A model generated the notes under the pieces. It was not told the origin of the DNA. It saw only the letters and a list, made by a program, of their open reading frames with translations, and did not search any database. From Acidimicrobiales bacterium (lineage in GTDB: Bacteria > Actinomycetota > Acidimicrobiia > Acidimicrobiales > VFJN01): DNA of 64,000 bases. The translations under genes and the position numbers were made by a program. Positions 1 through 13,105 of the stretch are shown here, in pieces. The stretch covers positions 21,510 to 85,509 of the forward strand of contig DATHJB010000033.1 in the NCBI GenBank assembly GCA_035316325.1. The letters run 5' to 3'. Within the stretch, counting starts at the first letter, position 1. Each line of letters starts with the position of its first letter.

Positions 1-1620
1 CTCATCGTCGTCGACGAAGCCCATTGCATCAGCGACTGGGGCCACGACTTCCGGCCCGACTACCGCCGGATCGGCCGCGTGCTCGGGATGCTGCCACGCT
101 CCGTCCCGGTCCTCTGCACCACCGCGACCGCCAACGACCGGGTGGTCGCGGACATCGACAGCCAGCTCGGCGGTATGGAGACCATCCGCGGGCCACTCGA
201 CCGGGCGTCGCTCGCCCTGGCCGTCGTGGCGCTGCCGCGGCAGGCCGAGCGGCTCGCGTGGCTGGCCGAGATGGTGCCGCGGCTGCCCGGTGCCGGGATC
301 GTCTACTGCCTCACGGTCGACGACACCGAACGGGTCGCCGGGTGGCTGCGGTCCCGGGGGATCGAGGCGGTCGCCTATCACGGTCAACAGGAAGACGAGC
401 TCCGGGTCACCTCGGAGGAGGACCTCCTGAGCAACGGTGTGAAGGCGCTGGTGGCCACCTCCGCGCTCGGCATGGGCTTCGACAAGCCGGACCTCGGCTT
501 CGTCGTCCACTACCAGAGCCCCGGATCGGCGATCGCCTACTACCAGCAGGTCGGCCGGGCCGGGAGGGCACTCGACCGGGCCGATGCCGTGCTGCTGCTG
601 GGTCACGAGGACCAACGCATCCAGGACCACTTCATCACCACGGCCTTCCCGCCGCAGGCGACGGCTGTCGCGGTCGTCGACCTCCTGGAGCGCAGCGGCG
701 AACCGGTCTCCCCGGTGGAGATCGAGCGCCACGTCAACGTCCGTCACACCGTGCTCGAGAACATGCTCAAGGTCCTCGAGGTCGACGGAGCGGTGGAGCG
801 CGTGCAGGGGCGGTGGCGTCGGACGCTGCAGGAATGGGCCTACGACGACGCCCGCGCCGAGCGGGTCACGGCGCTCCGGCGTCGCGAGCAGGCGGCGATG
901 CAGGACTACGGACTGACCGAGAGGTGCCGGATGGCGTATCTCCGAGAGCAGCTCGACGATCCGCCTTCCGGGCCGTGTGGGCGCTGCGACAACTGCTCCG
1001 GGCGCCGCATGGACCTGACCCTCGACGCTTCGCTGGTGGCTGCCGCGACCGACTACCTGCGCCGGCGGCCGGTCGTCGTGGAGCCACGTCGACGATGGAT
1101 CGCCGGCGGCTCCGATCGCCGTGGGGCCATACCGGCCGACGTGCAGGTGGGCGAGGGGCGCGCCTTGAGCCGGCTCGGCGACGGCGGCTGGGGCGACGTG
1201 GTGCGACGCTCGAAGGACGAGAAGGACCGCTATCCGGACGAGCTGGTCCGGGCGGCTGCTCGGGCTGTGGAGCAGTGGGCGCCGGAGCCTCGGCCGGCAT
1301 GGCTGACCTGTGTCCCGTCCGCATCGGGGCGCGGTGACCTGTGGGACTTCGCCCAGCGGTTGGCCTCCGAGCTCCGCCTGCCGCTCGAAGACGTCGTCCG
1401 GCGCCAACGGCCGTCGCTGCCGCAGAAGGAGATGGCGAACAGTGCGCAGCAGCTGCGCAACGTCAGCGGGGCCTTCGCGCTCGCGGGACCTCCGCCGTCG
1501 GGTCCGGTCCTGCTCCTCGACGACACGGTCGACTCCCGATGGACGCTGACGGTCGTCGGCGTCGCCCTGCGCGAGGCTGGCAGCGGTCCCGTCCACCCGT
1601 TCGTCCTCGCAAAGGCGTGA
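1..1620 (+). CDS. rqlH: RecQ-family SF2 DNA helicase, RqlH-like (5' end cut by window edge), with a C-terminal ComF/phosphoribosyltransferase-like domain
   Basis: Frame 1 is open from nt 1 (LIVVDEAHCISDWGHDFRPDY, the DEAH box) and runs into ORF 79..1620. Helicase motifs TATAN, ATSALGMGFDKPD and YYQQVGRAGR are present. A Zn-finger is seen at CRMAYL...CGRCDNC. The last ~107 aa (nt ~1297-1617) fit the ComF/PRTase pattern (LPQKEM..QQLRNVSGAF ... VLLLDDTVDSRWT). Confidence 0.85.
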   Translation, partial: LIVVDEAHCISDWGHDFRPDYRRIGRVLGMLPRSVPVLCTTATANDRVVADIDSQLGGMETIRGPLDRASLALAVVALPRQAERLAWLAEMVPRLPGAGIVYCLTVDDTERVAGWLRSRGIEAVAYHGQQEDELRVTSEEDLLSNGVKALVATSALGMGFDKPDLGFVVHYQSPGSAIAYYQQVGRAGRALDRADAVLLLGHEDQRIQDHFITTAFPPQATAVAVVDLLERSGEPVSPVEIERHVNVRHTVLENMLKVLEVDGAVERVQGRWRRTLQEWAYDDARAERVTALRRREQAAMQDYGLTERCRMAYLREQLDDPPSGPCGRCDNCSGRRMDLTLDASLVAAATDYLRRRPVVVEPRRRWIAGGSDRRGAIPADVQVGEGRALSRLGDGGWGDVVRRSKDEKDRYPDELVRAAARAVEQWAPEPRPAWLTCVPSASGRGDLWDFAQRLASELRLPLEDVVRRQRPSLPQKEMANSAQQLRNVSGAFALAGPPPSGPVLLLDDTVDSRWTLTVVGVALREAGSGPVHPFVLAKA

Positions 1621-1629
1621 ACACCCGAG

Positions 1630-2577
1630 ATGCCCCCGCGCTCCGATGGTTCGCTGGCGGCGCTGTTGCTGGTCCAGCGGCTGGTCGAGGTCGATGCCCG
1701 GCCTCTCAAGGCGTCGGAGTACTGGTCGCTGCTCGAACGCTTCCCTGATCCGGCGCGCTTGCTGGGCCTCGACGCCGCCGCGATCGCCGAGGTGGGCGGC
1801 ATCGGTGCCGACGAGGCAGAACGGATCGCCCGGCTGTTGGAGGCCGCCCCGGGGTTCGCCTTCCAGATGGACGACCTGCAACAGGGCGGCATCAGGCTGG
1901 TCGCCTCGGTCGATCCCGACTACCCCGCTCACCTGCGCGAACGCCTCGGCACGACGGCACCACCCGTCCTCCACGTCGCTGGCGACATCGCCCTTGCCGA
2001 CCGGCAGCTGCTCGGTGTCGTCGGCTCGCGCGACGTGAGCCCGGCCGGCGCCGAGGTCGTCGTCCGCGCCGTCGGCCAGGCCGCGCTGCATGACACGGGC
2101 GTCGTCGCCGGAGGCGCCGAGGGGGTCGACCAGATCGCCATGCAGGCTGCCCTCGGAGCGGGAGCTGCGGTCGTCGGTGTCCTCGCCGACTCGCTTCTCC
2201 GGGCGACCCGCGATCCCGACGTGCGGCGGGCGATCTCGTCGGGCCGGATGTGCCTGTGCACGCCCTACAAGCCGACCGCCGGCTTCACGGTGGCCAGCGC
2301 CATGGGCCGCAACAAGGTCGTCTACGCCCTCTCCGCCGCGACGTTCGTCGTCGCGGCCGACGCCGAACGTGGTGGCACATGGGCGGGTGCCGTCGAGGCC
2401 TTGCGCCACGGTTCAGCACCGGTCCTCGTCTGGACCGGCCCGGGCAGCGCCGCCGGCAACGCGCAACTCGTCACCCACGGCGCCCACCCCGTCAGCACCA
2501 CCGAGGCCCTCTTCCCCCTCCCGAACCCCGAGGACCGCCCCACTCCCTCACCGACCCAACTCGGCCTCGGCCTCTGA
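1630..2577 (+). CDS. DprA/Smf-like (SLOG-fold) DNA-processing protein paralog
   Basis: ORF 1630..2577 starts 9 nt after the helicase stop. Motifs LLGVVGSRDVS, GGAEGVDQIA, GRNKVVYALS and ERGGTWAGA follow the DprA Rossmann core. The N-terminal region looks HhH/SAM-like. Confidence 0.72.
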   Translation: MPPRSDGSLAALLLVQRLVEVDARPLKASEYWSLLERFPDPARLLGLDAAAIAEVGGIGADEAERIARLLEAAPGFAFQMDDLQQGGIRLVASVDPDYPAHLRERLGTTAPPVLHVAGDIALADRQLLGVVGSRDVSPAGAEVVVRAVGQAALHDTGVVAGGAEGVDQIAMQAALGAGAAVVGVLADSLLRATRDPDVRRAISSGRMCLCTPYKPTAGFTVASAMGRNKVVYALSAATFVVAADAERGGTWAGAVEALRHGSAPVLVWTGPGSAAGNAQLVTHGAHPVSTTEALFPLPNPEDRPTPSPTQLGLGL

Positions 2578-2646
2578 GACCGGATCGCCGGGATTGGTCG
2601 GGGCTTCCGGGCCTTGACTGTTACAGGGGGTCGGGATGATGGGGGC

Positions 2647-3624
2647 ATGTTCGAGATTCCTCGTGAGGTCATGGCTGCCCAGCACGCACTCGTCACCAGC
2701 GGGCAACTCCGGGAGGCGGGGTTCGACCACGAGGGCGAGCAGTGGCTCGTCCGCAACGGTCAGTTGGCGCCCGTCTCTCCCCGGGTCCTCCGGCTGCTCG
2801 GGGCGCCGCAGACTGAGGCGCAGCGGGTGTTGGCCGCGGTCCTCGACGCCGGGCCGGGCTCGGCTCTGTCCCACACGTCGGCGCTCGCCTGGTGGAGGCT
2901 GCCCGGGTTCACGCGGTGCGAGCTCCACGTCACCCGCACCGACGACGGGCGGCGTCGGTCCCGTCGCCTGGCTCTGGTCCACGACGCCGTGCCGTTGCCC
3001 GACCACCACGTCCGAGTCCTCGACGGCATCCCCGTGGTCAGCCCGGCCCGGGCCCTGTTCGACCTGGCGGGCATGCCGCGGATGCCGCGACAACGGATCG
3101 AGCGAGCGGTCGACAACGCCTGGAGCCTCCGGCTCGTCTCGGGCGCCACCCTCCACGCCATGTTGCGGGAGCTGACACGACGAAGACGCCCCGGCATCGC
3201 CACGATGCGCGACATCCTGCGGGTGCGCGGGCCCGACTACGTGCCGCCGGCCAGCGGGCTGGAGGGCCGGGTCGCGCAGATCCTCAAGGGCCGGTGGCGG
3301 ACGGAGCTGCGGCGCCAGGTGGACGTCGGCAGCGACGAGAGCTGGATCGGTCGCGTCGACTTCGCCGACCCGGAGCTCCCGTTCCTCCTCGAGGTGCAGA
3401 GCGAGCGCTTCCATGCCAGCCTGCTCGACCGGCAGGCCGACGCCGACCGTCGAACCCGGCTGGAAGCCGCCGGCTTCGTCGTCGTGAGGGTGTCCGAGAC
3501 GGACGTGTGGCACTACCCCGACGAGGTCGTCGAGCAGGTCCGCGCCGGGCGCAACGAGGCCCACCTCCGCGTCCTCCGGGGCGTCGTCGCCCCGAGCGCC
3601 GAGCTGGTCGGAGCTACTCGGTGA
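2647..3624 (+). CDS. DUF559 (Vsr-like endonuclease fold) protein with AbiEi_4-like N-terminal region
   Basis: ORF 2614..3624; the ATG at 2647 (MFEIPREVMAAQHALVTSGQL) is the likely start. The C-terminal VDFADPELPFLLEVQSERFH...AAGFVVVRVSETDVW is a typical DUF559 signature. Confidence 0.7.
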   Translation: MFEIPREVMAAQHALVTSGQLREAGFDHEGEQWLVRNGQLAPVSPRVLRLLGAPQTEAQRVLAAVLDAGPGSALSHTSALAWWRLPGFTRCELHVTRTDDGRRRSRRLALVHDAVPLPDHHVRVLDGIPVVSPARALFDLAGMPRMPRQRIERAVDNAWSLRLVSGATLHAMLRELTRRRRPGIATMRDILRVRGPDYVPPASGLEGRVAQILKGRWRTELRRQVDVGSDESWIGRVDFADPELPFLLEVQSERFHASLLDRQADADRRTRLEAAGFVVVRVSETDVWHYPDEVVEQVRAGRNEAHLRVLRGVVAPSAELVGATR

Positions 3625-4720
3625 GTTGGGCCGCGCGGCAGCCGGCCGGAGCGGAGAGAAGGTTGCAGCGGGCGGAGCCGCCGCCCGGCAGCGTCACCAC
3701 ATAGGAGGTGAAGCGAGGATCGGCGACCACGTAGTCGGTGGAGACGAGGTGAGCGGCGCTGGCCAAGGCGGCGTCGCGCATCGAGGTGTCGCCCGTCCGG
3801 GCCTGCACGGTGTCGGCGTCGGCCCGGGTACGGACGAGGTAGCCGTCGGCCACCAACGACTGGATCCCGGCCGTGTCGAACGGGTCGTTCATCACGACGA
3901 CGGCAGCTTCGGGGTCGGGCGGAGCGGCCGCGGCGAAGATCAGCCGGTCGCGCACCTGCGGTCGCAACGCCCGGTACAGCGCTCGCTCGGCGCCGGTGTC
4001 GTCGAGCGTGAACATCACGCGGCCCCGGGCGTCCGACAGCGTCGGCCACTGGTCGGCGAGCACCGCCTCACGCAGCGTGGCCTTGTCGCCGAGCACATCG
4101 GCCGGCCGGATCAGGCGCGACGCCGGGAACACCGAGGCGATCTCCGCCTCCAGGGTGCCGAACGCCGGAGTCGTCCACGGCAGCGGGTCGACGAAGCCGA
4201 GGCCCACCGGGTCGCCGATCGAGTCGTCCTTGGGCTCGAGCTGGATGACGATCGGCAGGTGGTCCGGGTGGGCGTCCGACCAGGCCTTCACCTCTTGCAG
4301 GCACGACACGAACGTCGGGCACGACGAGCGGAAGTCCACCTCCTGGACATGGAACACCTTGAGCCCCGGCTGGCTCATGCGCGGGTCGACCGGTGCCAGC
4401 CCCAGCAACGGCACCAACTTGGGCGAGGCGTAGTGGCCGCCCGCCGGTGAGTCGACGAACACGTCGAGCTCGATCGACCGCACGCCGTGGTCCAGCTCCG
4501 ACGCCAGCGGCAGGTGCGTGTACTCGAACCCGTTCGCCTGGTCGCCGATCACCCCTCGCAGGGCGCTCATCAGCGCCGGCTCCGGCTCGACGTGGTAGCT
4601 GTTGTGGCTCGCCAGGACCTGGATGTCGTTGAGCCGCAGCTCGGGACAATCGAGGTCGCCGGGCGCACAACAGGCGCCGACGAGCAGAGGTAACGACAGC
4701 ATTGCCCCCCGGTAACGCAT
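3614..4720 (-). CDS. Ca2+-dependent phosphoinositide phospholipase C-like secreted protein
   Basis: ORF 3614..4798, with likely start at MRYRGAMLSLPLLVGACC (signal-like). LRLNDIQVLASHNSYH and IELDVF match the PI-PLC X-box-like catalytic pattern (PI-PLC-C1 type). Confidence 0.68.
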   Translation of the reverse strand: MRYRGAMLSLPLLVGACCAPGDLDCPELRLNDIQVLASHNSYHVEPEPALMSALRGVIGDQANGFEYTHLPLASELDHGVRSIELDVFVDSPAGGHYASPKLVPLLGLAPVDPRMSQPGLKVFHVQEVDFRSSCPTFVSCLQEVKAWSDAHPDHLPIVIQLEPKDDSIGDPVGLGFVDPLPWTTPAFGTLEAEIASVFPASRLIRPADVLGDKATLREAVLADQWPTLSDARGRVMFTLDDTGAERALYRALRPQVRDRLIFAAAAPPDPEAAVVVMNDPFDTAGIQSLVADGYLVRTRADADTVQARTGDTSMRDAALASAAHLVSTDYVVADPRFTSYVVTLPGGGSARCNLLSAPAGCRAAQLTE

Positions 4721-4796
4721 GGGGTCAGCATGCTCGAACTCAGCGGCCCGTGCCCTTTTTTCGATAACCAGCCTTCCCAACGGGAATACTGACGGC

Positions 4797-5675
4797 ATGC
4801 CTCGCGCAATTTGGAGCGGTGCGGTCAGCTTCGGGCTCGTCTCGATCCCGGTGAAGCTCTACAACGCCGTGTCACGCAAGAGCGTGTCGTTCAACCAGAT
4901 CGACAGCCGCACGGGTGCGCGCATCCGCTACAAGAAGGTGTCCGACGCCGACGGCGAAGAGGTGCCGTCGGAGGCCATCGTCAAGGGCTACCAGCTCTCC
5001 AGCGGCGACTACGTGCTCCTCGACGACGCCGAGCTGGGGTCGCTCGACCCCGAGGCCAGCCGCACCGTCGAGATCGAGCAGTTCGTCGACCTCACCGAGA
5101 TCGACCCGATCTTCTACGACGCCGCCTACTACGCCGCCCCCGACAAGGCCGCCCGCAAGCCCTACGCCCTGCTGGTGCAGGCCATGGAGGAGCAGCAGCG
5201 GGTGGCGATCGCCCGGTTCGTGATGCGGTCGAAGCAGTACCTGGCGGTGCTGCGGGCCGACGACGGCGTGCTGGTGCTGTCGACGATGGTCTACGCCGAC
5301 GAGGTGAACGACCCGGCCGAGCTGGCAGAGCTCGACGGCGTCGAGGACGCCGACGTGTCCGAGCGGGAGCTCACGATGGCCCGCCAGCTGGTCGACTCGC
5401 TCACCGAGCCGTTCGACGCCGACCGCTTCAAGGACGACTACCGCATCCGGGTGCACGACCTCATCGAACGCAAGGCCGCCGGCGAAGAGCTGGTCGCCCC
5501 ACCCGCCGCCGCCACCGAGGAGAAGCTCGTCGACCTCATGGCGGCGCTCGAGGAGAGTGTCCGCGATGCGAAGGAGGCCCGCGGGCGCCACCCTACGGCC
5601 AAGCCGCCGGCTGAGGCGGCGAAGGCCCGCAAGAAGGCGGACGAGAAGGCTCCCGCCAAGCGCAAGTCGGCCTAG
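4797..5675 (+). CDS. ku: Ku, non-homologous end-joining DNA end-binding protein
   Basis: MPRAIWSGAVSFGLVSIPVKLYNA...SFNQI is the canonical bacterial Ku N-terminus. The C-terminal tail is Lys/Ala-rich. Confidence 0.93.
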   Translation: MPRAIWSGAVSFGLVSIPVKLYNAVSRKSVSFNQIDSRTGARIRYKKVSDADGEEVPSEAIVKGYQLSSGDYVLLDDAELGSLDPEASRTVEIEQFVDLTEIDPIFYDAAYYAAPDKAARKPYALLVQAMEEQQRVAIARFVMRSKQYLAVLRADDGVLVLSTMVYADEVNDPAELAELDGVEDADVSERELTMARQLVDSLTEPFDADRFKDDYRIRVHDLIERKAAGEELVAPPAAATEEKLVDLMAALEESVRDAKEARGRHPTAKPPAEAAKARKKADEKAPAKRKSA

Positions 5676-5690
5676 GCGTCTCTCTCCGGC

Positions 5691-6584
5691 ATGCCGATGG
5701 TCGAGGTTGAGGGGCGGCGCCTCAAGCTGTCGAACCTCGACAAGGTCCTCTATCCCGAGACGGGGACCACGAAGGCCGAGGTCATCGACTACTACGCCCG
5801 CGTCGCTCCCGTGATGGTGCCGCACGTGCGGAACCGGGGGGTCACGCTGCGGCGCTTCCCCGACGGCGTCGAGGGCAACTCGTTCTTCGAGAAGCGCTGC
5901 CCGTCGCACCGGCCCGACTGGCTGTCGACGGTCCTCGGCCCGGGCGACCGGCGGGGCGGCATCGACTACTGCTGCCTCGACTCGACGCCCGCCCTGGTGT
6001 GGGCCGCCAACATGGCAGGCCTGGAGATCCACGCCCCCATGGCCTACGGCGACGACATCGACTCACCGGCGATCTGCGTGTTCGACCTCGACCCGGGCGC
6101 CCCCGCCGCCATCCGGGAGTGCGCGGAGGTGGCCCTCGACATCCGCCACGCCCTCGACGGCCTCGGCCTGGAGGCGTTCCCCAAGACGTCGGGGTCGAAG
6201 GGCATGCAGGTCTACGTGCCGCTGAACTCGCCCCACACCCACGAGCAGTGCAGCGCCTTCGCCCAGGCGATCGCCCAGCTGCTGGAGCGGGCGGCGCCCG
6301 ATGCGGTCACCTCGACCATGGCCAAGGCCGTCCGGCCCGGCAAGATCTTCGTCGACTGGAGCCAGAACAGCCGGCACAAGACGACCGTGGCCGTCTACTC
6401 GCTCCGGGCCCGCCCGCAGCCCACGGTGTCGACACCGTTGAGCTGGGACGAGGTCGAGGCCGGATCGTCGGGCAAGGACCCACTGGTGTTCCTGATGGCC
6501 GACGTCCTCGCCCGTGTCGACGCCCACGGCGACCTCTTCGCCCCCGTCGCCACGATGGAACAGCACCTCCCCAAGATCGCCTGA
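5691..6584 (+). CDS. ligD: Stand-alone LigD polymerase/primase (PolDom) domain protein
   Basis: VEVEGRRLKLSNLDKVLYPETGTTKAEVIDYY...LRRFPDG...FFEKR and KIFVDWSQN match the LigD Pol domain. No ligase or PE domain is present in this ORF. Confidence 0.9.
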   Translation: MPMVEVEGRRLKLSNLDKVLYPETGTTKAEVIDYYARVAPVMVPHVRNRGVTLRRFPDGVEGNSFFEKRCPSHRPDWLSTVLGPGDRRGGIDYCCLDSTPALVWAANMAGLEIHAPMAYGDDIDSPAICVFDLDPGAPAAIRECAEVALDIRHALDGLGLEAFPKTSGSKGMQVYVPLNSPHTHEQCSAFAQAIAQLLERAAPDAVTSTMAKAVRPGKIFVDWSQNSRHKTTVAVYSLRARPQPTVSTPLSWDEVEAGSSGKDPLVFLMADVLARVDAHGDLFAPVATMEQHLPKIA

Positions 6585-6600
6585 CCGCCGGCGGGGGTCC

Positions 6601-7290
6601 TCAGCCGGGGGCGAAGGCGGCGGGAGGCGTCGGGGTCGACGCGGCGGCGGTGGCGAAGAGCGCGTCGATCTGGGCGGGGGTCAGCTCGCCGGTGACGCGT
6701 TGGACCACCTTGCCGTCGGCGTCGAGGGCGACCCAGAAGGGGAACGCCGAGAGCCCGTAGGCGGAGGCGGCGTGGTTGTCGCCGTCGGCGATCACCGGGG
6801 ATGTCCACCCCTCGTCGTCGAGCCAGTCGGAGGTCGGGTAGTTGGGCCGGGTCTGGTCCATCGCCGTGGCGACCGTCCGCAGGTCGACGCCCGAGGGCTT
6901 GCGCCCGGCCTCGAGCCACTGCTGCACCACCGGCACCTCGGCCTGGCAGTGCGGGCACCAGTGGGCCACGAAGAGGACGACGGTCGGCCGCCCCGCGGTG
7001 GGGAGGGCCACGTCGTTGCCCTCGAGGTCCTCGCCGAGCAGCGTGGGGGCGAGCCGCCCGACGGCGGGATCGGTGCCAGCGTCCTCGGGCAGCTCGGCCA
7101 GGCGCCTCCCCTCCACCGTGGCGAGGGCCGAGTCGAACTCGGTGTCCACCGCGTCCTCGCCCCGGAGCAACGACACCAGCAGAGCCAGCAGCGCGGCGGC
7201 GATGACGGCGCCGATGGCGATCACCGGCAGCGTGGTGGCGCGGGTGTGGCCGTCGTCGCCGGTCAGCAGGGTCGGGTTGCTCAGGCTCAC
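6601..7290 (-). CDS. TlpA/ResA-like membrane-anchored thiol-disulfide oxidoreductase
   Basis: WCPHCQ active site and an N-terminal TM helix (LPVIAIGAVIAAALLALLV). The GTG start at 7290 forms a GTGA overlap with the upstream small ORF. The ORF track's longer start at 7443 has an Arg/Pro-rich, non-coding-looking N-terminus. Confidence 0.75.
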   Translation of the reverse strand: MSLSNPTLLTGDDGHTRATTLPVIAIGAVIAAALLALLVSLLRGEDAVDTEFDSALATVEGRRLAELPEDAGTDPAVGRLAPTLLGEDLEGNDVALPTAGRPTVVLFVAHWCPHCQAEVPVVQQWLEAGRKPSGVDLRTVATAMDQTRPNYPTSDWLDDEGWTSPVIADGDNHAASAYGLSAFPFWVALDADGKVVQRVTGELTPAQIDALFATAAASTPTPPAAFAPG

Positions 7291-7556
7291 GGACGGGGCT
7301 CCAGGGCAGTGATGGTACGGATCGAACGGATCGGACGGGCAGGGATCAGCAGGGCCAGGATCGGGCCGCAGCCGCTGAGCGCGCGGCACACCGCGGCAAC
7401 CCCGCCGCCCTCGTCGACCTGCGGTCGGACGACGCCAGCCCACGCCTCCCGCGACCGGGCCCTGACCGCGCGGGTGGTGGCGACGCCGGCGATCGCGGGC
7501 GCGGCGACGAGGGTCAGGACGGTGAGGAACGAGAGGGCGGTAGCGGTCGAATCCAT
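7287..7556 (-). CDS. Small hypothetical membrane protein (89 aa), translationally coupled to the TlpA-like gene
   Basis: ORF 7287..7556 has high GC3 codon usage, two hydrophobic segments and a CRALSGC motif. Its stop overlaps the downstream GTG start (GTGA). Confidence 0.4.
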   Translation of the reverse strand: MDSTATALSFLTVLTLVAAPAIAGVATTRAVRARSREAWAGVVRPQVDEGGGVAAVCRALSGCGPILALLIPARPIRSIRTITALEPRP

Positions 7557-7634
7557 GTGGGCCCCAGCCCGCCGTCCGTGAGGTTAGTGGCGCACCTCCA
7601 GCGAGCCGCGCACCCGTGAGGTAGAACGGAGCGG

Positions 7635-8480
7635 ATGGCGCGATCGGGTTGGGTTGCGGTGGCGATCACGGCGTTGCTGGTGGCAGCGCTGGGGAGCCAG
7701 CCGGCGATCGATCAGGCCGTGGACGCCGACGCCCAGATCCGGCCGTTCCTCTCGTCGCTCACCACCTTCCCCGCCTGGTCGACCAACACGTTCGGTGGCG
7801 GGGGCGACATGGTCGGGCCGATCGTGTCGAAGGTCGTGCTGCTGCTCGTGGTGGTGTTCATCGGCGCGGGCATCTCCGGACAGGTCGGGTCGGCGCCCGC
7901 GTCGTTCCTGGCCGGCTGGGGCACGGTGATGGTCGGGGCGGCGCTGGCCGGCGGCGTGTTCCTGGCGGCGGCCGACGCATTCGCCCTCGACGGCACCCTC
8001 GCCGACTCGGTCGGCGGTGCCCTGCCCCTGGTGGTGCGCGGCTTCAACGACGGCGTGCAGTTCGGGCTGTACACCGGCTGGCTGGTGGGCCTCGGCATGG
8101 TGGTGACGGCGCGCCGCCTCCGGCCCGATCCCGACTGGATCGCCCCCACCGCCGGCCCCCCGGGCGTCCCCGCGGTCACCGGCGTCCCCGGTGGTCACAC
8201 TCCTCCCGGCTCCGCTCCCGGGTACCCGACGGTCTACCCGCCGTTGCCGTCGGGCGCCGACTGGTCGGGCCCGCTCACGCAGCCCGTGGCACGGCCGCAG
8301 TCGACGAAGGACCTGGTCGACAGCGGTTTCCCGTCCGACGGCGACTCACCCGGTCCGCCGACCCGGCCCGTGTGGCCCAGCCAGTTCCCCGGTGCGACGC
8401 CCGGCGGCGCCTACACGCGCGGCGACGAGGAGGAGGCCCCGCGCCCCAACTGGACCCGCTGGTCCGACCGCAGCGACTGA
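7635..8480 (+). CDS. Hypothetical integral membrane protein with Pro-rich C-terminal tail
   Basis: ORF 7635..8480 has several predicted TM segments (VVLLLVVVFIGAGI, VMVGAALAGGVFLAAA, YTGWLVGLGMVV). No recognisable catalytic motif. Confidence 0.6.
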   Translation: MARSGWVAVAITALLVAALGSQPAIDQAVDADAQIRPFLSSLTTFPAWSTNTFGGGGDMVGPIVSKVVLLLVVVFIGAGISGQVGSAPASFLAGWGTVMVGAALAGGVFLAAADAFALDGTLADSVGGALPLVVRGFNDGVQFGLYTGWLVGLGMVVTARRLRPDPDWIAPTAGPPGVPAVTGVPGGHTPPGSAPGYPTVYPPLPSGADWSGPLTQPVARPQSTKDLVDSGFPSDGDSPGPPTRPVWPSQFPGATPGGAYTRGDEEEAPRPNWTRWSDRSD

Positions 8481-8493
8481 GGGGAACACCCCC

Positions 8494-8548
8494 CCCGAAA
8501 CCTCGACAGAACTGGTCGCCAGAGGACCATCGGTGTCGAAGTTTCGGG
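8494..8548. repeat. REP-like ~55-bp palindromic intergenic element, copy 1 (probable bidirectional terminator hairpin)
   Basis: CCCGAAACCTCGACA...TGTCGAAGTTTCGGG arms pair 14/15. It lies between the convergent membrane-protein gene and metH. The same element occurs at 13110, 15229 and 54017. Confidence 0.8.
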
Positions 8549-8566
8549 TCGGGTCGGGTCGGGGCG

Positions 8567-12064
<3,498 letters not shown>

Positions 12065-12184
12065 AAGTACGGGCCAGGCTACTGGTCAGTCACTACCGGC
12101 TCCCTTCCGAATCGCTGTCACCTGCCGGGGCGGCCGGTTCGGGGCTGGTCGAAGGGGGAGTGTCGTCTGCGTAGATTCGGGTCG

Positions 12185-13105
12185 GTGAGGTCTTCTCGTG
12201 TAGCGGTGGCGCCGGCGGGGGTGCGGTCTTTCCTGGAGGATGCCGTGGTGGCGGGTGGCGGCGTCGTCGTGCCGCCGGAGGAAGCCGAGGGGGTGGTGTG
12301 GGCGGATGCCGGCGACGCGGGCGGTCTGTCGAAGCTGCTCGACGACCAGCCGGGGATCCGGTGGGTGCAGCTGCCGTGGGCGGGGATCGAGCCGTACGTC
12401 GAGGTGGTGCGGGCGCACGACGACCTGGTGTGGGCCTGCGCCAAGGGCGTGTACGCCGAGCCGGTGGGTGAGCACGCCCTGGCCCTGGCGCTGGCGTGCC
12501 GGCGCTCGCTGGGTGCGTTCGTCCGGGCCGGCCGGTGGACGAAGGGGCGGGGGGAGTACCTGCTGGGCTCCCGGGTGACGATCGTGGGCGGCGGCGGGAT
12601 CACCGAGACACTGCTGCGCCTCCTCGGTCCGTTCGGCTGCGAGGTGACCGTGGTGCGCTCGACGCCCCGGCCGCTGGCGGGGGCCGATCGGGTGGTGGCG
12701 TCGTCGGAGCTGGACGAGGCGCTGACCGGGGCCGACGTGGTGGTGCTGGCCCTGGCGTTGACCGCCGAGACGACGGGGCTGATCGACCGGCGGCGCCTCG
12801 ACCTGGTGGCGCCGGGTGGCGTGCTGGTCAACGTCGCCCGGGGGCAGCACGTGGTGACCGACGACGTCATCCCGGCGCTCGACGACGGGCCCCTGGCGGG
12901 TGCCGGGCTCGACGTCACCGACCCCGAGCCGCTGCCCGACGGCCATCCCCTGTGGTCCCGGCCCGACGTCATCATCACCCCGCACACGGCCAACACGCCC
13001 GAGATGGCGGTGCCGCTGCTGTCGGCCCGGGTGACCGACAACGTCCGCCGCCACATCGCCGGCGAGCCCCTCCTCGGCCTCGTCGACCCCGCCGCCGGCT
13101 ACTGA
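12185..13105 (+). CDS. D-isomer-specific 2-hydroxyacid dehydrogenase family protein
   Basis: This is the 3' part of ORF 9554..13105. It carries VTIVGGGGITETL (NAD fold), NVARGQHV and DVTDPEPLP...PHTAN. The GTG at 12185 is a candidate start and remains uncertain. Confidence 0.82.
   Translation: MRSSRVAVAPAGVRSFLEDAVVAGGGVVVPPEEAEGVVWADAGDAGGLSKLLDDQPGIRWVQLPWAGIEPYVEVVRAHDDLVWACAKGVYAEPVGEHALALALACRRSLGAFVRAGRWTKGRGEYLLGSRVTIVGGGGITETLLRLLGPFGCEVTVVRSTPRPLAGADRVVASSELDEALTGADVVVLALALTAETTGLIDRRRLDLVAPGGVLVNVARGQHVVTDDVIPALDDGPLAGAGLDVTDPEPLPDGHPLWSRPDVIITPHTANTPEMAVPLLSARVTDNVRRHIAGEPLLGLVDPAAGY

Follow-up and report, generated by a model that had tools for sequence, protein, structure and literature searches.

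The first 2,577 nucleotides (nt) of a 64,000-nt stretch from an Acidimicrobiales bacterium (contig DATHJB010000033.1; the whole stretch is hereafter the window) contain two genes on the forward strand that most probably form a PsyrTA (= RqlHI) module, a two-gene anti-phage system of the toxin-antitoxin (TA) type; we put the probability of this assignment at roughly 0.85. The upstream gene, psyrT or rqlH (the putative toxin; 1..1620), is present with its last 539 codons and stop, and encodes a RecQ-like superfamily 2 (SF2) helicase fused to a phosphoribosyltransferase (PRTase) domain. The downstream gene, psyrA or rqlI (the putative antitoxin, in a short form; 1630..2577), encodes a DprA-fold protein of 315 amino acids (aa). 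A 9-nt spacer (1621..1629, ACACCCGAG) separates the stop codon of psyrT from the start of psyrA, so that the nine-nt gap and the 315-aa open reading frame (ORF) reported in a preliminary description of this DNA are both confirmed. Frame 1 contains no stop codon before the TGA at 1618-1620, and psyrT is truncated on its 5′ side by the left edge of the window; psyrA begins with the ATG at 1630 and its ORF ends at 2577. The two genes share one reading frame and are separated by one TGA and three sense codons (1618..1632), and read-through of this single TGA would yield a toxin-antitoxin fusion. Most homologous loci have a 4-nt overlap instead, which places the psyrT-type and psyrA-type genes in different frames. 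A scan of 1..5000 for terminator and promoter consensus sequences gave no match, and none between psyrT and psyrA, although such a scan is uninformative in an actinobacterium of 72% GC; GC content is flat, at about 72%, throughout the region.

The missing 5′ part of psyrT can be read from a metagenomic contig, L001 (ENA ERZ27267804, k141_780630), which is 99.8% identical to the window across 12.6 kb and encodes an identical 315-aa protein. On L001 the full-length PsyrT has 686 aa, and the 147 N-terminal residues, including motif I (Walker A, GWGKS), therefore lie outside the window. The alignment of window 1..12582 with L001 8372..20948 contains 18 mismatches and 1 gap, one mismatch being an Ala/Gly change in the helicase (LALAVV versus LALGVV); the window thus derives from a strain close to that of L001 or from another assembly, and the two records are not identical.

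PADLOC holds dedicated models for PsyrTA (PDLC03928 and PDLC03927), a family that includes RqlH-RqlI of E. coli F11 and PsyrTA of P. syringae, and these match both proteins. The full helicase aligns to the PsyrT model (PDLC03928) with an E-value of 4.1e-258 and 856 bits, residues 9-685 falling on positions 7-683 of 689, and the fragment inside the window gives 5.6e-199, while the 315-aa protein matches PsyrA at 3.8e-81 over model positions 8-296 of 398. The next best family for the helicase, DpdF, the helicase of the dpd DNA-modification system, scores 313 bits against 856 for PsyrT and is rejected, there being no other dpd genes. PsyrTA was described as a toxin-antitoxin pair by Sberro et al. 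(2013), as cited by Millman et al. (2022). Millman et al. (2022; 10.1101/2022.05.11.491447), who also cite Russell and Mulvey (2015), equate PsyrTA with RqlHI and place it among two-gene TA systems that protect against phage, the antitoxin being a DprA homologue and the toxin carrying a PRTase domain. The rqlH and rqlI genes of E. coli make up an operon. Work on the F11 proteins showed that RqlH and RqlI interact physically, and that RqlH alone leads to SOS induction, filamentation and mutagenesis, a toxicity that RqlI neutralises (Russell and Mulvey, 2015; PMC4670107). The system is thus already known and named, and the locus adds little to it. The preliminary description had taken the pair for an uncharacterised module, which it is not; its guess that the pair may act against foreign DNA agrees with the published defence role, and the interaction between the two proteins that it proposed to look for has been measured in E. 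coli.

Compared with an E. coli plasmid pair, the window toxin is 46% and the window antitoxin 36% identical. The same two genes occur in the same order, toxin upstream and antitoxin downstream with a 9-nt gap, as in the published rqlHI (PMC4670107), and junctions in the family are tight or overlapping. In both cases the toxin consists of a helicase, a linker, a four-cysteine zinc module and a PRTase domain with the DD loop, and the antitoxin of an N-terminal helical domain followed by the DprA Rossmann domain. The window pair differs in that its antitoxin has 315 aa compared with about 400-485 aa and lacks the C-terminal helix-turn-helix (HTH)/winged-helix region, in that it belongs to a high-GC actinobacterium that is uncultured and most closely related to Acidimicrobiales metagenome-assembled genomes (MAGs), and in that the locus lies outside any recognisable defence island.

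The helicase core within the window (13..570, forward strand) runs from motif II onward (DEAH, nt 13-24) and includes the second RecA-like domain (Helicase_C, aa 96-190); Pfam recovers the end of the DEAD domain at 2.5e-6 and Helicase_C at 3.2e-15. In the full protein on L001 the SF2 ATPase motifs are intact, with GWGKS from aa 50, DEAH at aa 152 and QQVGRAGR at aa 329, and the RqlH equivalents of the Walker A Lys and the motif II Asp are K49 and D148. The core is followed by a tetracysteine RecQ-type zinc-binding module (847..996, forward strand; Cys at window-frame aa 309, 326, 329 and 332), whose sequence (ERC...GPCGRCDNC) scores 24.9 bits against RecQ_Zn_bind, marginally below the Pfam cut-off of 25, and which corresponds to the zinc-binding domain described for Mycobacterium smegmatis RqlH (PMC3378886). 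The RecQ structures 4tmu and 1oyw match the helicase at 5e-58 and 5e-57, and the similarity extends no further than about aa 350 in the full-length protein. Domain searches of the helicase gave no match to HRDC, and the window fragment scores 209.6 bits against TIGR01389 (cut-off 640.2); RecQ proper is rejected on these grounds.

The RqlH-specific C-domain (1048..1617, forward strand) comprises 190 aa and has a PRTase/ComFC-like fold, with its phosphoribosyl pyrophosphate (PRPP) loop VLLLDDTVDSRWT at nt 1507-1545. The preliminary description had recognised an RqlH-type helicase ending in a ComF/PRTase-like module, and this is borne out; it put the extent of the module at about 107 aa (nt ~1297-1617), and the conserved domain as a whole is larger, at about 190 aa, with the PRTase core beginning near nt 1300. 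The Pfam match to Pribosyltran is weak (E 0.053, aa 450-532), and in the PDB the C-domain sequence by itself matched only repeat proteins, spuriously, so that a profile was needed. A profile of 30 homologous C-domains matches PRPP synthetase best (7.9e-6), followed by HGPRT and PurF, with the matches centred on the PRPP loop. An AlphaFold2 model of 1048-1617 built from 43 sequences has a mean predicted local distance difference test (pLDDT) score of 93.9, and a Foldseek search with it finds type I PRTases at about 3e-4, the highest query template modelling (TM) score, 0.57, being that of Helicobacter pylori ComF (7p0h). The acidic DD/PRPP loop (DDTVD, near residues 654-658 of the full-length protein) is intact, and its counterpart in E. 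coli RqlH is DIVD. Deletion of residues 509-690 or the D663A substitution abolishes the toxicity of E. coli RqlH, which thus needs its PRTase domain (PMC4670107); by analogy, the C-domain of the window PsyrT is presumed to be the toxic effector domain. The ComF-like domain, which the preliminary description had regarded as an orphan, therefore has an assigned role in E. coli, as the toxic moiety, its chemistry aside. Sequence searches of our PDB copy found no structure of PsyrT or PsyrA, and a 2025 preprint names ShosT as the sole characterised member among defence-associated PRTases.

Proteins consisting of the RqlH C-domain alone (P0176, P0185, P0209, P0213 and P0232; 226-247 aa) are called on contigs of 137-690 kb. 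They may represent psyrT genes that have been split or broken, or else PRTase proteins that truly stand alone. P0176 (247 aa; L085 5001..5744, on a 690-kb contig) is preceded by about 900 uncalled bases with no helicase call, and probably reflects a gene that is broken in its long-read assembly.

In the 315-aa protein PsyrA, a helical, SAM-like domain at the N-terminus (aa 1-85) precedes a Rossmann domain (aa ~86-297), and the chain finishes in a disordered tail. The motifs picked out in the preliminary description are all present, VVGSR at nt 2017-2031, GGAEGVD at 2110-2130, GRNKVVYALS at 2305-2334 and ERGGTW at 2365-2382. PsyrA scores 115.5 bits (2.4e-33) against the Pfam DprA family PF02481, whose cut-off is 29.6, compared with 20.7 bits for the SLOG family LDcluster4, which answers in favour of DprA the question, raised at the outset, of whether another SLOG family fits better. 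Its AlphaFold2 model (pLDDT 92) resembles DprA (3maj and 3uqz, ~1e-16) and ShosA (8zva, 1.4e-15) most closely, with molybdenum cofactor carrier/LOG proteins following at 1e-7 to 1e-5; by sequence, too, ShosA 8zva ranks with the closest solved structures (4.6e-8). Canonical DprA is rejected, since the protein reaches 84.0 bits for TIGR00732 (cut-off 191.15) and 55.5 for PRK10736 (cut-off 495). The protein has the DprA fold and is not an orthologue of canonical DprA, in agreement with the diverged DprA neighbour noticed earlier.

A SF2 helicase, a ComFC-like PRTase fold and a DprA fold thus meet in one pair of genes, which recalls ComFA, ComFC and DprA of natural competence, and the pair could in principle process incoming transforming single-stranded DNA (ssDNA) during DNA uptake. 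The analogy, drawn in the preliminary description as well, was already in print in 2015 (PMC4670107), where the discussion draws the transformation links of DprA and of the B. subtilis comF operon (helicase and PRTase), and again in Iyer et al. (2017; PMC5512222). H. pylori ComF does give the best structural coverage of the PRTase domain, and the partner does have the DprA fold. However, the window helicase is RecQ-like rather than ComFA-like and is fused to its PRTase, the DprA-like protein falls far below the dprA equivalog threshold, and no com or pilus genes are called on L001 in the 10 kb that flank the DprA-like gene on each side, so that competence gene context is lacking. Furthermore, E. 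coli commonly carries the pair, and no role for it in transformation could be detected there (PMC4670107), it is found inside restriction-modification (R-M) and BREX loci (see below), and the known role of the family lies in toxin-antitoxin function and defence, not in DNA uptake. A function in competence is, in our view, hardly credible.

ShosTA is another known system with a DprA-like antitoxin. ShosA shares the SAM-like and Rossmann domains, and ShosT acts through a non-canonical PRTase that depends on binding PRPP; ShosTA leads to DNA damage and filamentation, and ShosA binds ssDNA and RecA and is reported not to bind ShosT directly (PMC12961424). The systems differ in that ShosT is reported to consist of PRTase and pyrophosphatase domains, with no helicase, and in that ShosA reportedly does not bind its toxin directly, whereas E. 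coli RqlI binds RqlH. As an identity for the window pair ShosTA is rejected: the ShosA hidden Markov models (HMMs) match PsyrA at 5.3e-25 and 1.1e-8, compared with 3.8e-81 for PsyrA itself. The ShosT model is absent from the best 25 of 33 PADLOC matches to the window part of the helicase and from the 21 matches to the full protein at E<=1e-10.

The window antitoxin lacks the C-terminal HTH region of RqlI/PsyrA, its chain ending 19 residues past the fold, and about 290 of the 400 residues of E. coli RqlI align with it. Proteobacterial and most cyanobacterial antitoxins have 410-485 aa, with an extra C-terminal region that carries a weak HTH (TrmB) signal in Pseudomonas, and shorter antitoxins, of about 315-340 aa, are found repeatedly, namely in Acidimicrobiia, in Chloroflexota, in a Stigonema and in an Armatimonadota genome. 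A short DprA-like gene could be a truncated relic next to an inactive toxin, that is, the remnant of a decayed or domesticated module; the match to positions 8-296 only of the 398-position PsyrA model fits such a history, as does the loss of the partner at L005 and L006, which hold the nearest relatives of the window helicase (59-61% identity), and also at L007. Against this, both ORFs are intact with all catalytic motifs conserved, and the short form is a conserved family with a confident fold model: 496 homologues are found at E<=1e-5, the best 120 of which are mostly about 315 aa long and come from Acidimicrobiia and other actinobacterial MAGs, and an alignment of 33 of the homologues has 49 invariant columns. 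Indeed, E. coli RqlI 1-320, from which the HTH is missing, neutralises RqlH fully, and the C-terminal HTH is thus dispensable (PMC4670107). We regard decay as very improbable.

We surveyed 80 full-length RqlH loci from GTDB species representatives by six-frame searches with an HMM of the 315-aa family, 77 of the loci being informative in that they retain enough downstream sequence. A PsyrA-like ORF lies directly downstream of the helicase in 38 of the 77; the gap is between -35 and +34 nt, a 4-nt overlap being very frequent, except at one locus, where it is 248 nt. The paired loci include essentially all those from Proteobacteria, Cyanobacteria and Desulfobacterota, most from Chloroflexota and four of six from Acidimicrobiia. 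This adjacency is far beyond chance, and the DprA-like neighbour for which the preliminary description proposed to survey RqlH orthologues is indeed widespread; together with the 9-nt gap on the same strand, it bears out the operon-like linkage proposed there. The four further short-form antitoxin homologues that were checked on long contigs all have a RecQ-like helicase of 685-694 aa immediately upstream.

The contexts of the pair vary. It is inserted into a type I R-M system, between hsdS and hsdR, on an E. coli IncF plasmid (L003 1..9353), lies between pglX and pglZ of BREX on an Acinetobacter plasmid (L004 1..10618), adjoins partition genes on a Nostoc plasmid, and stands next to TA genes in one MAG. 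In a forest-soil MAG (L086 2920..5936) it sits amid histidine-biosynthesis genes, with IGPD, GATase and His_biosynth upstream and PRA-CH downstream, which suggests a module inserted into the his cluster. Such R-M, BREX, plasmid, his and TA contexts are typical of the behaviour of mobile defence or TA cargo. Together, family membership, gene order, tight coupling, the intact DD/PRPP loop and helicase motifs, and recurrence across phyla place the two window genes with PsyrTA. L003 and L004 are also nested defence systems, whose pairs carry just the labels 'RecQ family helicase' and 'DNA-processing protein DprA' in public records.

The remaining 39 of the 77 informative loci are partner-less, with no DprA-like gene within 4 kb, and include all 20 Streptomyces loci, other Actinomycetes and most Solirubrobacterales. 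In Streptomyces the HMM survey finds the DprA-like gene next to rqlH to be genuinely absent. In a rough neighbour-joining tree of 83 helicases, built without support values, partner-less RqlH proteins form one derived actinobacterial clade, at the base of which the window helicase branches, adjoining the partner-less L005 and L006; the partner-less groups comprise L048-L084 (Streptomyces and other Actinomycetes) and L023-L066 (Solirubrobacterales). The DD/PRPP loop is kept in paired and partner-less RqlH alike, and the Streptomyces-type solo clade has lost the motif PQKxMxNSxQQxRN and acquired some 8 extra residues ahead of the loop. No substitute antitoxin is seen downstream of rqlH in L005, L007 and L069 (three loci, searched with Pfam), where there is nothing or a housekeeping homocysteine methyltransferase. 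These sequence patterns hint that the antitoxin may have been lost within Actinomycetota, and the partner-less clade presumably has a non-toxic, housekeeping role.

The window helicase has the same helicase-linker-zinc-PRTase architecture as the solo RqlH proteins of M. smegmatis (MSMEG_5935) and Streptomyces, and is 49% identical to a Streptomyces orthologue over its full length; it differs in having a partner and in retaining the motifs of the paired type. M. smegmatis lay outside the locus survey, and we assume that its RqlH belongs to the partner-less Actinomycetes lineage. According to Russell and Mulvey, no M. smegmatis strain has an RqlI orthologue, and RqlI is nearly absent from Gram-positives, 99.6% of which have RqlH only, by a BLAST criterion of at least 75% coverage (PMC4670107). 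The partner-less majority among the surveyed actinobacteria agrees with this. Since about 290 of 400 residues align, short forms were probably missed at 75% coverage, and their probable exclusion would partly explain the 99.6% figure.

A solo RqlH lineage next to the window helicase brings up the main rival to the PsyrTA assignment, in which the pair serves housekeeping DNA repair or recombination: RqlH would stand in for RecQ and the DprA-like protein would load RecA on exposed ssDNA, the two cooperating rather than opposing each other as toxin and antitoxin. M. smegmatis RqlH is indeed a bona fide 3′-5′ helicase in an organism without RecQ (PMC3378886), the related antitoxin ShosA binds both ssDNA and RecA (PMC12961424), and cooperative action of the two proteins on DNA was proposed for E. 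coli (PMC4670107), a model to which this rival comes close, as it does to the ssDNA-processing module suggested in the preliminary description. The position of the window helicase at the base of the solo clade and the chromosomal, non-island locus near Ku and LigD-Pol point the same way. However, the Ku, LigD-Pol and DUF559 neighbours are absent at all 83 other loci, the DprA-like protein stays below the threshold for the dprA equivalog (84 versus 191 bits), and the occurrence of the pair in plasmid R-M and BREX operons and in shifting MAG contexts amounts to a patchy, mobile distribution unlike that of a core repair gene. Furthermore, in E. coli, deletion of rqlHI causes no fitness or repair defect, and deletion of rqlI alone is harmful (PMC4670107). 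We consider a repair role unlikely, and note that it is not strictly exclusive of defence.

PsyrTA in the window might then work as follows, the toxicity of the PRTase domain, its binding and neutralisation by RqlI, and the anti-phage activity being carried over from E. coli homologues. PsyrT would act as a RecQ-like 3′-5′ DNA helicase with the C-terminal ComFC-like PRTase as its toxic effector, and PsyrA would be translated from the same transcript. In the uninfected cell, PsyrA bound to PsyrT would, with the helicase domain, hold the PRTase in check. Phage DNA or replication intermediates, or a shut-off of host expression with decay of the antitoxin, could release this restraint, and the freed PRTase, acting in a PRPP-dependent manner, would cause DNA damage, SOS induction and growth arrest, thereby blocking phage propagation. 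The trigger is inferred by analogy with ShosTA, which responds to phage replication factors or host shut-off and whose DprA-like antitoxin binds ssDNA and RecA (PMC12961424).

Several points weigh against this assignment and the functions that go with it. The local context consists of ordinary chromosomal genes, with no integrase, no GC shift and no obvious defence island; the window helicase is phylogenetically next to the partner-less actinobacterial RqlH clade; and the antitoxin lacks the last ~100 positions of the PsyrA model. The functional roles at this locus and in the actinobacterial homologues would be those of homologues studied elsewhere. Russell and Mulvey favour cooperative action of both proteins on DNA over a pure TA function (PMC4670107), and in one study an E. 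coli PsyrTA gave no protection against the phages used, either by native deletion in NILS69 or by expression in K-12 MG1655 (10.1101/2024.12.20.629700).

A more speculative extension of the PsyrTA assignment, which we hold to be doubtful, is that PsyrT is a fused ComFA-ComFC whose helicase would track foreign ssDNA and whose PRTase would act on ssDNA or be switched by it, with PsyrA as a sensor coupled to ssDNA and RecA; the module would then be an immune sensor derived from DNA-uptake machinery. As a corollary, the short-form pairs of Acidimicrobiia and Chloroflexota might be ancestral to the partner-less RqlH of Actinomycetes, through antitoxin loss and detoxification.

For annotation, the two genes deserve the names PsyrT/RqlH and PsyrA/RqlI, as the public labels 'RecQ' and 'DprA, competence' wrongly imply recombination and transformation. 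The locus also makes two modest additions. One is a short-form antitoxin that is conserved in Actinomycetota and Chloroflexota; the other is a paired helicase that branches at the base of the actinobacterial clade of partner-less RqlH, and this could help to explain how RqlH alone is tolerated.

Downstream of psyrA lies an AbiEi/DUF559-like gene of 336 aa (2614..3624, forward strand), with a PADLOC match to AbiEi at 9e-26 (aa 18-192) and a C-terminus that resembles DUF559/MTES_1575 nucleases weakly in Pfam (3.3e-4 and 4.8e-5, the MTES_1575 match falling short of the family cut-off); no gene for an AbiEii-type partner adjoins it. It is followed by a gene on the reverse strand for a Ca2+-dependent phospholipase of the phosphatidylinositol-specific phospholipase C (PI-PLC) C1 family (3614..4798; 394 aa; 3.9e-114), and then, on the forward strand, by Ku (4719..5675; 2.4e-52) and, 15 nt later, a stand-alone LigD primase-polymerase (LigD-Pol; 5691..6584; 9.4e-91). 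The preliminary description had placed DUF559 and Ku/LigD-Pol beside the pair as supporting context: the genes are there, with the PI-PLC gene in between, and the support falls away, since tblastn with the AbiEi/DUF559, PI-PLC, Ku and LigD-Pol proteins finds no match in the 83 other rqlH loci. The linkage of Ku, LigD-Pol and DUF559 to the pair therefore looks coincidental, and a single module made up of the pair and the non-homologous end joining (NHEJ)/nuclease genes is rejected on the same result. No second copy of the DprA-like protein or of the PRTase domain was found elsewhere in the window. The LigD-Pol ORF is without ligase or phosphoesterase domains, and Ku and LigD-Pol together resemble a split NHEJ gene set. 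Upstream of the pair, L001 carries an ABC transporter and a two-component system, and MetH is also part of the local context.

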